From: a virus
Taxonomy: Duplodnaviria > Heunggongvirae > Uroviricota > Caudoviricetes
Direction: 5' to 3' (one strand)
DNA: 5,390 nt
Virus record (IMG/VR): IMGVR_UViG_2671180473_000013
Part shown: piece after piece, positions 1 through 3,000 of the stretch
Numbering within the stretch: the first letter of the stretch is position 1
Layout: the number at the start of each line of letters is the position of its first letter
Position numbers: made by a program

Positions 1-3000
1 AGCGATGATCATAACTTTGACCGCCAGATTATTATTCCGCCCATTATTTTTAACGGTATAGCGTATGACGATCCGGGGAGCGGAAATAACCCAGGAGGCA
101 CGCGATACACGGGTTATGGTTTTGAAGTTCGCAAAAACGGCGTATTAATCGCATCCAGAGAAACTAAAGGGGCCATTCCCGGTAGTTACAGTGCAGTTAT
201 TGATATGCCTAGTGGTGGTGGTAGCGTCACTCTGGAGTTTAAGATTTTCCAGAAAGGCAATCAGGGGGCAGGCAATATCACCGACTGTACGGTGATTGTG
301 ACCAAAAAAGCGGCTTCCGGCATCAGTATTCGTTGAAATATTTATAACCCCAATAAATGGCGTCAGGAATGACGCCTTTTTTATTGCAGAAAAGCGAGAG
401 GTAATTATGCGTAAAGTTTGTGCAGCCATTTTGTCCGCAGCCATTTGCCTGGCCGTATCCGGTGCGCCTGCATGGGCGTCTGAACATCAGTCCACGCTGA
501 GCGCGGGGTATCTTCATGCCCGGACCAACGTTCCCGGCAGTGATGATCTGAACGGGATTAACGTGAAATACCGTTATGAGTTTACGGATACGCTGGGGCT
601 GGTGACGTCATTCAGCTATGCAGGAGACAAGAATCGCCAGCTGACCCGTTACAGCGATACCCGCTGGCATGAAGATTCCGTTCGTAACCGCTGGTTCAGC
701 GTGATGGCGGGGCCGTCTGTGCGCGTGAATGAATGGTTCAGCGCGTATGCGATGGCGGGTGTGGCTTACAGCCGTGTGTCGACTTTTTCCGGGGATTATA
801 TCCGCGTAACTGACAATAAGGGGAAAACGCACGATGTGCTGACCGGAAGTGATGACGGTCGCCACAGCAACACGTCTCTGGCGCACTGACGGTTTCATCG
901 TGGGTGTCGGTTATAAATTCTGATTAGCCAGGTAACACAGTGTTATGACAGCCCGCCGGTTCAGGCGGGCTTTTTTGTGGGGTGAATATGGCAGTAAAGA
1001 TTTCAGGTGTACTGAAAGACGGCACAGGAAAACCGGTACAGAACTGCACAATCCAGCTGAAAGCAAAACGTAACAGCACCACGGTGGTGGTGAACACGCT
1101 GGCCTCAGAAAATCCGGATGAAGCCGGGCGTTACAGCATGGACGTTGAGTACGGTCAGTACAGCGTTATTCTGTTGGTGGAAGGATTCCCGCCGTCACAT
1201 GCCGGGACCATCACCGTGTATGAAGATTCCCGACCCGGTACGCTGAATGATTTTCTCGGTGCCATGACGGAGGATGATGCCCGTCCGGAGGCTCTGCGCC
1301 GTTTTGAACTGATGGTGGAAGAGGTGGCGCGTAACGCGTCCGCGGTGGCACAGAACACGGCAGCCGCGAAGAAATCAGCCAGCGATGCCAGCACATCAGC
1401 CCGTGAGGCGGCAACCCATGCGACTGATGCTGCAGATTCAGCACGTGCAGCCAGCACGTCAGCCGGACAGGCCGCTTCGTCGGCTCAGTCAGCGTCTTCC
1501 AGCGCAGGAACGGCATCAACAAAGGCCACTGAAGCCTCAAAAAGTGCTGCCGCTGCAGAGTCCTCAAAAAGCGCGGCGGCTACCAGTGCCGGTGCGGCGA
1601 AAACGTTAGAAACGAATGCGGCAGCGTCACAACAATCAGCAGCCACTTCTGCATCCACCGCGACCACGAAAGCGTCAGAAGCTGCCACCTCAGCCCGGGA
1701 TGCGTCGGCTTCAAAAGAGGCGGCAAAATCATCAGAAACGAACGCATCATCAAGCGCCAGTAGCGCAGCTTCCTCGGCGACGGCGGCTGCAAATTCTGCG
1801 AAGGCGGCCAAAACGTCCGAGACGAACGCCAGGTCTTCTGAAACGGCAGCGGGACAGAGTGCCTCAGCTGCGGCAGGCTCAAAAACAGCGGCTGCGTCGT
1901 CTGCCAGCGCCGCGTCAACAAGTGCCGGGCAGGCCTCAGCCAGTGCCACCGCCGCCGGAAAATCGGCAGAAAGCGCCGCATCATCCGCTTCAACAGCCAC
2001 AACGAAGGCTGGCGAAGCCACTGAGCAGGCCACGGCAGCAGCGAGGTCAGCTTCCGCAGCGAAGACATCCGAAACGAACGCGAAAGCGTCGGAAACCCGT
2101 GCAGAATCCTCAAAAACGGCTGCCGCATCGTCCGCCAGTTCGGCGGCGTCATCGGCATCATCGGCGTCTGCTTCAAAAGATGAGGCGACCAGACAGGCGT
2201 CAGCAGCGAAGGGCAGCGCCACGACGGCATCCACGAAGGCGACAGAGGCTGCTGGTAGTGCGACGGCAGCAGCTCAGAGCAAAAGTACGGCGGAATCTGC
2301 AGCAACGCGCGCTGAGACAGCGGCAAAACGGGCAGAGGATATTGCATCCGCCGTGGCGCTTGAGGATGCGAGCACGACGAAAAAGGGGATAGTACAGCTC
2401 AGTAGTGCGACTAACAGCACTTCCGAGTCACTGGCGGCAACACCAAAAGCCGTTAAGGCCGCGTATGACCTGGCTAACGGGAAATACACCGCACAGGATG
2501 CAACGACAGCACAGAAAGGGATAGTTCAGCTCAGCAGTGCGACTAACAGCACTTCCGAGTCACAGGCGGCAACGCCAAAAGCCNNNNNNNNNNNNNNNNN
2601 NNNNNNNNNNNNNNNNNNNNNNNNNNNNNNNNNNNNNNNNNNNNNNNNNNNNNGTGGCTGGATTCTCAGGGAGCATTTAACCATCCATACTGGATGTGCA
2701 AGGGTTCCTGGTCTTATGGCAATAATAAAATCATTACTGATACTGGCTGCGGTAATATTCATCTCGCCGGAGCTGTCATTGAAGTAATGGGGATAAAGTC
2801 AGCGATGACGATCCGCATTACCACTCCGACCACATCCAGCGGTGGCGGAACAACCAACGCCCAGTTTACCTATATTAATCACGGAACAGATTATTCACCT
2901 GGCTGGCGAAGGGACTATAACTCCAGAAATAAGCCAACGGCATCAGAGATCGGGGCGCTACCGTCAGGTGGAACAGCAGTATCATCAGTTAATCTGGCTT

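Follow-up and report, generated by a model that had tools for sequence, protein, structure and literature searches.

What does a run of N hide when it falls inside the repeats of a tail fibre gene? The locus analysed here, a stretch of 5,390 nucleotides from IMG/VR record IMGVR_UViG_2671180473_000013 (the window), raises this question: its tail fibre gene, stf, is interrupted by a single N run of exactly 70 N (2584..2653, unstranded), next to a direct repeat with a 132-bp spacing. A preliminary description of this DNA had placed the gap on the tandem repeat itself and had reasoned that it most likely hides further repeat copies that short reads could not span. We followed this up by comparing the window with gap-free relatives, with fibre genes of related prophages and with other draft assemblies.

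Gene content and assignment to Shigella sonnei

The window spans the J-lom-stf-tfa-IS1 end of a defective lambdoid prophage of Shigella sonnei, and its sequence derives from a short-read scaffold. Its genes all lie on the + strand. It begins with the 3' end of gene J (1..336), which encodes the C-terminal receptor-binding domain of the tip attachment protein (Pfam PF12421, E=5e-20); this remnant aligns with the 1165-aa J gene of S. sonnei loci. The next gene, lom (407..889; Pfam PF06316, profile positions 1-159 of 199), is shortened to 160 aa by an 83-bp deletion, which was placed by comparison with the intact lom of a related prophage (L002); the same comparison identifies positions 890-923 as the leftover of the former lom 3' end. 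Then comes stf, in two parts. The 5' part, 532 codons in frame 1 (988..2583), is made of a PF08400 N-terminal domain (E=5e-72), an Ala/Ser-rich shaft and the repeat units (PF03406, E=5e-30). In the 3' part, 440 codons plus stop in frame 3 (2655..3977), a middle domain resembling Mu S (PDB 8ju3, E=1e-86) is followed by a collar domain and a His-rich tip like that of T4 gp37 (PDB 2xgf, E=2e-82); this part has matches to PF07484 and PF03335. It is followed by tfa, which encodes a tail fibre assembly chaperone of 193 aa (3977..4558; PF02413, E=5e-44), by an AT-rich spacer of 28-37% G+C and by the left end of IS1 (5308..5390), 83 nt into which the window ends; IS1 insA/insB are found at the same junction in S. 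sonnei loci and in E. coli MLI023K1.

This is a lambdoid Stf/Tfa pair, with PF08400 in a gene that comes after J and lom and with a Caudo_TAP chaperone gene (PF02413) directly downstream, and the order of profiles (J PF12421, Lom PF06316, Stf PF08400, Tfa PF02413) recurs as gene order in 20 S. sonnei loci. The prophage is decaying, as the lom deletion and the adjoining IS1 attest.

The assignment to S. sonnei comes from exact matches. The 160-aa Lom product is present unchanged in S. sonnei genomes, the exact 193-aa Tfa product is encoded there directly downstream of a 1027-aa stf, and both proteins match S. sonnei chromosomes including HE616528, CP026802, CP019689 and LR213458. The gene order in these loci is J, Lom-160, 1027-aa Stf, Tfa-193, IS1 and an AraC-family gene. 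To the right of the gap, 2654-5390 is 100% identical to most S. sonnei loci found. To the left, 1-2523 is 99.8% identical to the S. sonnei resident, with four differences (171, 682, 1293, 1308), all synonymous and at third codon positions, and 1309-2523 matches the resident stf exactly. The resident gene (for example in strain 53G, HE616528) thus has the flanks of the window, namely J, the 83-bp lom deletion, tfa, the AT-rich spacer and the IS1 junction, but it has no gap, and the window departs from it by the four synonymous differences and by 13 mismatches in the 60 nt that precede the N run.

Repeat units and gap content

Before the gap lies one complete repeat unit of 44 codons (2383..2514, + strand), a Phage_fiber_2 motif that reads KGIVQLSSATNSTSESLAATPKAVKAAYDLANGKYTAQDATTAQ; the resident stf of S. 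sonnei has exactly the same unit 1. After it, 23 codons of a second unit are visible (2515..2583, + strand), of the internal type that we call 'SESQ' and identical to unit 1 at 64 of 69 nt and at 22 of 23 aa. The two form a direct repeat with a spacing of 132 bp (repeat family D4), and both match PF03406, Phage_fiber_2, in two stretches that together score 103.1 bits against a gathering cutoff of 22, the better one covering aa 462-502 and profile positions 1-41 of 42. Tandem Repeats Finder gave no report at the site, because only about 1.5 copies are present in the window. The initial picture of two near-identical 44-codon units holds in part only: the 132-bp repeat is real and the visible match is close, but what can be seen is one complete unit plus 23 codons, and where relatives have no gap, unit 2 turns out to be no near-copy of unit 1, since its second half reads VKAANDNAEKRLQ... 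and not VKAAYDLANGKYT....

The reading frame does change across the gap, as had been claimed. The upstream ORF, in frame 1, closes on a codon boundary at 2583, and the downstream one runs in frame 3 from 2655 as far as the stop codon at 3975-3977. In every gap-free relative aligned, among them L001, the equivalent site holds 164 bp. We counted 27 spanning S. sonnei-type loci that are free of gaps (20 found by exact Lom/Tfa, 5 draft contigs found by the C-terminal ORF and 2 IMG/VR loci found by the lom-deletion junction), and all 27 have 164 bp at this site, two PF03406 units and one continuous frame of 1027 aa. The arithmetic is exact: 164 bp are 54 codons plus 2 nt, which lead from frame 1 at 2583 to frame 3 at 2655, and 532 + 55 + 440 gives 1027 aa. 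Complete E. coli genomes that carry the C-terminal module agree, the best 40 all spanning 1095 bp for a 1001-base query, that is, 94 bp more than the window. A gap of literally 70 nt would shift the frame by +1 and break stf. The length of the N run thus fits neither the actual spacing in relatives nor the reading frame, as expected of a scaffold gap of estimated size, and the view of the 70 N as a placeholder is borne out, because filling with the 164 bp restores the 1027-aa gene that is continuous in all gap-free close relatives.

Could stf nevertheless be a pseudogene in this strain, either because the N count is literal or because the gap contains unrelated sequence, a frameshift or a stop? 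The +1 shift of a 70-nt gap, the decay of the prophage with its lom deletion and an IS1 next to stf-tfa, and the 1-2-nt deletions found within the gap-equivalent stretch in a few drafts (L098, L100, L101) all point that way. Against this, the flanks are open in frames that are joined exactly by a filling of 164 bp or of 296 bp, and no relative has a 94-bp deletion at the site, so that the literal 70-nt gap was set aside. We regard a pseudogene as extremely improbable; the apparent 'frameshift' in the record is an artefact and no real evidence for one.

The proposal that the gap most likely hides further copies finds no support in the comparison. A third unit is absent from all 27 spanning S. 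sonnei-type loci, and 115 of the 120 best protein clusters with the C-terminal module of the window have two units. When a synthetic three-unit sequence was used as query, the best 40 complete E. coli genomes yielded two-unit genes only, none of which matched in one piece. Exact look-up of synthetic proteins with two, three or four units returned no matches, but says nothing either way, since it also misses the genuine 1027-aa S. sonnei protein. Nor are short reads unable to span the site: many short-read S. sonnei contigs cross it without a gap, for instance L022, a contig found in at least 20 samples. The 427-aa downstream ORF, for its part, matches other broken or partial assemblies.

A foreign-type flank and its paralogs

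The sequence immediately before the gap is not that of the resident gene. Its last 60 nt (2524-2583) differ at 13 positions from the terminal, second unit of S. sonnei (ATAATCCAGCTAAGC). By contrast with this, the 68 nt from 2516 to 2583 are matched exactly in 23 IMG/VR loci, where they belong to an internal unit in 23 of 23; there the SESQ stretch is followed by VKAAYDLANGKYTAQDATTAQ and at least one further unit, in arrays of three to five units, and the genes carry a different middle domain (NGRVPSARKVNGKAL...). The longest exact match, 2443-2583, is found in 15 IMG/VR loci with an stf of the L025 type. The match to the resident (up to 2523) and the match to the L025 type (from 2443) overlap in exactly 81 nt. 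This overlap is an exact repeat, R (2443..2523, + strand), made of the second half of a unit and the first 9 nt of the next, and it forms the zone in which the window switches from S. sonnei type to foreign type. After A2442 and R, the two alternative continuations are ATAGTTCAGC and ATAATCCAGC, and the internal-type second half expected after a SESQ first half is GTTAAGGCCGCGTATGAC.

The four single-base differences further to the left tell a similar tale. The window's alleles (171G, 682T, 1293T, 1308A) co-occur with the SESQ unit in six L025-type loci, and 30 of 30 S. sonnei-type loci have the reference allele at every covered one of the four sites. The foreign allele at 682 is flanked by resident alleles at 661 and 703. 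The L025-type gene, an E. coli prophage stf of 999 aa with the units SESQ-SESQ-SETL and the NGRVPSARKVNGKAL middle domain, resembles the window in the exact stretch 2443-2583 and in all four alleles, but it is about 5% divergent over 878-2442 and continues into a different middle domain after its last unit. Two other candidate sources for the whole left contig were rejected: an S. sonnei paralog of the L103 type, which has no SESQ unit and 24 differences from the window in 1883-2583, and a paralog of the L003 type, which shows 39 mismatches over 878-2583.

A 131-nt junction sequence that runs from resident unit 1 through R into SESQ had no exact match in IMG/VR, JGI metagenomes or GTDB representative genomes, and the closest complete E. 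coli genome has 1 mismatch; to judge from these searches the junction may not exist in nature. A switch inside 81 identical nucleotides can be left by homologous exchange as well as by an assembly graph (k <= 81) that was followed down the wrong branch.

Other assemblies show how breakable this region is. One S. sonnei draft (L095) starts at 2443; in another (L115), whose scaffold also includes a paralogous stf with three units, a contig stops at 2523; in a third (L113) a contig starts at 172, the base after variant site 171. Yet another draft (L103) has a three-unit stf in a different prophage, with a 476-bp exact repeat common to the resident stf that begins at 2443, takes in the terminal unit and the linker and reaches into the C-terminal domain. 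Breaks at 2443 and 2523 and paralogous stf genes are thus on record in S. sonnei drafts other than the genome of the window. Among E. coli drafts, matches to the region include many 'partial' proteins on contigs of 1-2 kb, and the stf repeat region is generally hard for short-read assemblers. The gap was said to sit on the tandem repeat, and repeats do seem to be behind the break; the tandem array itself is not the trouble, because the resident units differ enough to assemble. The probable cause is the exact repeats common to paralogous stf genes, the 81-nt one (2443-2523) and the 476-bp one shared with the L103 paralog.

To explain these observations we propose that the true stf has two units and that the end of the left contig strayed into a paralogous stf, which we hold to be probably the case. 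The resident stf would then be a single gene of 1027 codons with two Phage_fiber_2 units, the gap would correspond to the 164 bp, which in relatives encode VKAANDNAEKRLQKDQNGADIPGKDTFTKNIGACRAFGGSVSTTTGNWTTAQFIE, and the 70 N would stem from a size estimate. The gap would owe its origin to one or more additional lambdoid stf genes in the genome, with exact stretches common to the resident gene. The assembly graph would fork in the 81-nt repeat; the left contig would follow the paralog for 60 nt, enter an internal SESQ unit and stop where that unit re-enters the repeat, and the scaffolder would then link it to the resident C-terminal contig. We infer from this that an L025-type paralog is present in the strain and that a mis-join produced the 60 nt just left of the gap. 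As far as sequence comparison can tell, a mis-join is favoured by the exact lineage match, by the gap content of relatives, by an overlap that is precisely the 81-nt repeat and by the failure of the joined 131 nt to match exactly in the databases searched, and the four odd alleles, all found with the SESQ unit in L025-type loci, would fit it as well. The shared break points in L095, L115 and L113 and the L103 paralog with its long repeat favour it too, and the 70-N estimate, nearer to 164 than to 296, points weakly in the same direction.

Several observations speak against a mis-join. We found a SESQ unit in none of the S. sonnei assemblies, the three-unit paralogs labelled as S. sonnei having SESL, SEML or SETL units, and a resident prophage and a SESQ-type stf were not found in the same IMG genome (0 genome identifiers shared between the two sets of loci). 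A contig from a k-mer graph is expected to extend k-1 nt into a repeat, but the left contig ends 8 nt past 2575, the last base that distinguishes the second unit of the window from unit 1, and the right contig starts at 2654, inside supposedly unique sequence; both ends are explained only if gap-filling or trimming is assumed. Simple bubble-popping explains poorly a foreign 682 between resident 661 and 703. Finally, stf recombination is real in S. sonnei, as in L104, where the same C-terminal 700 aa follow a different N-terminus.

The rival explanation is a real recombinant with at least three units, in which homologous exchange at the 81-nt repeat would have passed an internal SESQ unit from an L025-type prophage to the resident stf. 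The gap would then hide at least 296 bp, made up of what is left of the SESQ unit, followed by the terminal unit and the linker. The 60 nt that lead up to the N run do have internal-unit sequence, and a SESQ first half leads into an internal-type second half and another unit in 24 of 25 loci examined. The junction from SESQ to a terminal unit with the same linker exists in L102, and three-unit genes with the same linker and C-terminal module are known (P0008, and P0011, which is L103). A recombinant haplotype could account for the four foreign alleles, L104 shows that S. sonnei does have recombinant stf genes, and lambda recombines with defective prophages across stf-tfa (PMC3945230). Yet three units are found in 0 of the 27 spanning loci, no one-piece match to the synthetic three-unit gene appears among the best 40 complete E. 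coli genomes, and only 2 of the 120 best clusters with the module are three-unit genes, despite a three-unit query. Such a recombinant also requires the donor to have contributed four short, separate conversion patches, one of them at most 41 nt long, and the 70-N estimate is far from 296. We consider a third unit unlikely, though by some way not negligible.

The second unit could also be a hybrid, in a gene that has kept two units: gene conversion would have swapped the first part of the terminal unit for the SESQ type, leaving a gap of 164 bp and no extra copy. Unit exchanges of this kind happen, for the sole unit of L070 is a SESQ first half on a terminal second half, and this single hybrid unit is the expected product of an unequal exchange between units. 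In the window, however, internal-type bases reach 2583 (AAAAGCC, vs AAAGGCA in L070), so that the crossover would have to fall inside the gap, and just 1 such junction was found in IMG/VR. A hybrid unit is accordingly doubtful in the extreme, if a shade more credible than a broken gene. Returning to the two-unit gene with a strayed contig end, the N run is an ordinary scaffold gap in a known, repeat-bearing and paralog-rich gene, and belongs to biology already known.

Repeat number and module exchange in the fibre family

How, then, does unit number behave in the wider family? Among related prophage fibres it ranges from 1 to 5, always with 44-codon spacing: one unit in L002, L070 and P0108, two in S. 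sonnei, three in L003, L025 and L103, four in L036 and five in L027, L035 and L041. Head-to-tail units that differ in number between related genes make this a variable-number tandem repeat. The counts can be broken down by C-terminal module. With the WLDSQGAF module, which is that of the window, the loci examined have one unit (5 loci), two (34) or three (1); with the NGRVPS-type module they have two (7), three (20), four (1) or five (3). Among the 120 best protein clusters with the module of the window, 115 have two units, 2 have three, 2 have one and 1 is aberrant. Within the prophage's own lineage no copy-number variation was found, with two units in 27 of 27 spanning S. sonnei-type loci. 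The suggestion that repeat number varies between strains thus applies across related prophages and finds no support in the S. sonnei resident gene.

Stf is probably a trimeric, mosaic fibre: a lambda-type N-terminus (PF08400) leads into an Ala/Ser-rich shaft and the PF03406 units, which are followed by a Mu S-like middle and a gp37-like tip. PF03406, the 'Phage tail fibre repeat' of lambda Stf, P2 H and Mu S, is present with the motif G-I-V-Q-L-S-S-A-T-N-S-x-S-E-x-L-A-A-T-P-K-A-V-K, and residues 97-175 of Mu S align to the unit plus linker (PDB 5yvq, 8ju3); 8ju3 matches the middle domain, and 5yvq also covers the repeat unit. As in those systems, the motif stands at the joint between a common N-terminal part and exchangeable C-terminal modules, but here it lies within a 44-codon tandem unit present in 1-5 copies in relatives. 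The tip resembles the receptor-binding tip of T4 gp37 (PDB 2xgf, E=1.6e-82, query 353-586 against chain 28-242), to which the last 234 aa of stf align, His-x-His repeats included. Unlike in the T4 long fibre, this tip is carried on a lambda-type N-terminus, and a stretch of about 20 residues differs.

The gap itself carries little biological weight, since the motif, the mosaicism and stf recombination are already known; indeed the fibre motif, mosaic tail-fibre genes and stf recombination are textbook matter (Haggard-Ljungquist 1992 and Sandmeier 1994, as cited in PMC3945230). What follows for the record is that 2524-2583 and the four SNPs to its left are suspect as the resident allele of the strain, and for Shigella and E. 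coli at large, that prophage fibre genes assembled from short reads are prone to chimeric contig ends where paralogs have a PF03406 unit in common. If the three-unit gene were true after all, it would be a case, caught in the act, of repeat-mediated fibre lengthening and module shuffling inside a clonal pathogen, with a decaying resident prophage and an incoming L025-type lambdoid phage as exchange partners within an 81-nt stretch.

Genes with different C-terminal modules diverge right past the AATPKAVKAANDNA of their last unit, and therefore the conserved PF03406 unit would act as a homologous joint, both for module swaps and for the gain and loss of units, each of which would add 44 residues of shaft. 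This picture matches the mosaicism of tail fibres and the recombination of lambda with defective prophages described in PMC3945230, and also the working chimeric Stf proteins that have been built on purpose from the lambda N-terminal part and a foreign C-terminal part (PMC11338833).

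Variant sites and a truncated lom on the left side of the window

To the left of the assembly gap, the window departs from the S. sonnei-type loci at four sites (171, 682, 1293 and 1308), all of them third codon positions. At the sites that each locus covers, the window alleles are found in none of 30 S. sonnei-type loci, and each is the common allele among E. coli prophages. Site 682 is bracketed by resident alleles (that is, those of the S. sonnei-type stf/prophage) at 661 and 703. The right-hand 2737 bp of the window show zero differences from the S. sonnei-type loci.

The lom gene that separates J from stf is itself truncated (window 407-923): relative to an intact 199-aa gene, 83 bp are lost after about position 877, which shortens the product to 160 aa and leaves a vestige of the former 3' end out of frame. 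This exact 160-aa protein is listed by 1212 blocks of the assembly index, and all ten of the places fetched for it share the J-lom-stf-tfa neighbourhood; several of these ten records are from S. sonnei.

From tfa to the IS1 junction

Between tfa and IS1 the sequence is AT-rich (window 4560-5300, 28-37% G+C), and none of the S. sonnei loci has a gene call in this stretch. The left end of IS1 follows at 5308-5390, where its first 83 nt, with the insA start at 5363, run to the end of the window; S. sonnei genomes carry a complete IS1 at the same junction, adjoining an AraC-family gene. In E. coli MLI023K1 the IS1 insertion context is that of the window and S. sonnei, but the identity is only 96.8%. 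Separately, the + strand at 4320-4518, entirely within the tfa coding region, matches the Rfam candidate small-RNA family IS009, scoring 218 bits where the gathering score is 117.

Breakpoints in the stf shaft and scaffolds that mix stf genes

The Ala/Ser-rich shaft of stf (window 1330-2340) contains several degenerate internal repeat families, and other S. sonnei contigs start in its interior. The partial protein P0003, whose cluster counts 743 member sequences, begins in the shaft at window 1948, and the shaft is also where recombinant genes with a different N-terminus (proteins P0004 and P0005; locus L104) are joined. Two IMG S. sonnei-type scaffolds, L114 and L115, consist of contigs linked by single N; along them, pieces of two or three distinct stf genes follow each other, and one of these genes is of the lambda type (VKAVMGETNKKAPLNSPALTG).

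Paralogous and rearranged unit arrays

A paralogous S. sonnei prophage with a three-unit stf (L103) carries, directly after tfa, a reverse transcriptase (PF00078) and a SLATT_5 gene (L103:2958-4857), with an integrase adjoining the pair and a Dus-family gene (PF01207) farther out. This pair looks like retron-type defence cargo.

The longest array among those seen has five units, four 44-codon SESQ units and a terminal unit, and occurs on each of three separate contigs of one genome (L027, L035 and L041; IMG genome 2617270960). The stf of L070 has a single hybrid unit (L070:4253-4287, - strand) that joins a SESQ first half to a terminal second half, the trace left by an unequal exchange of units.
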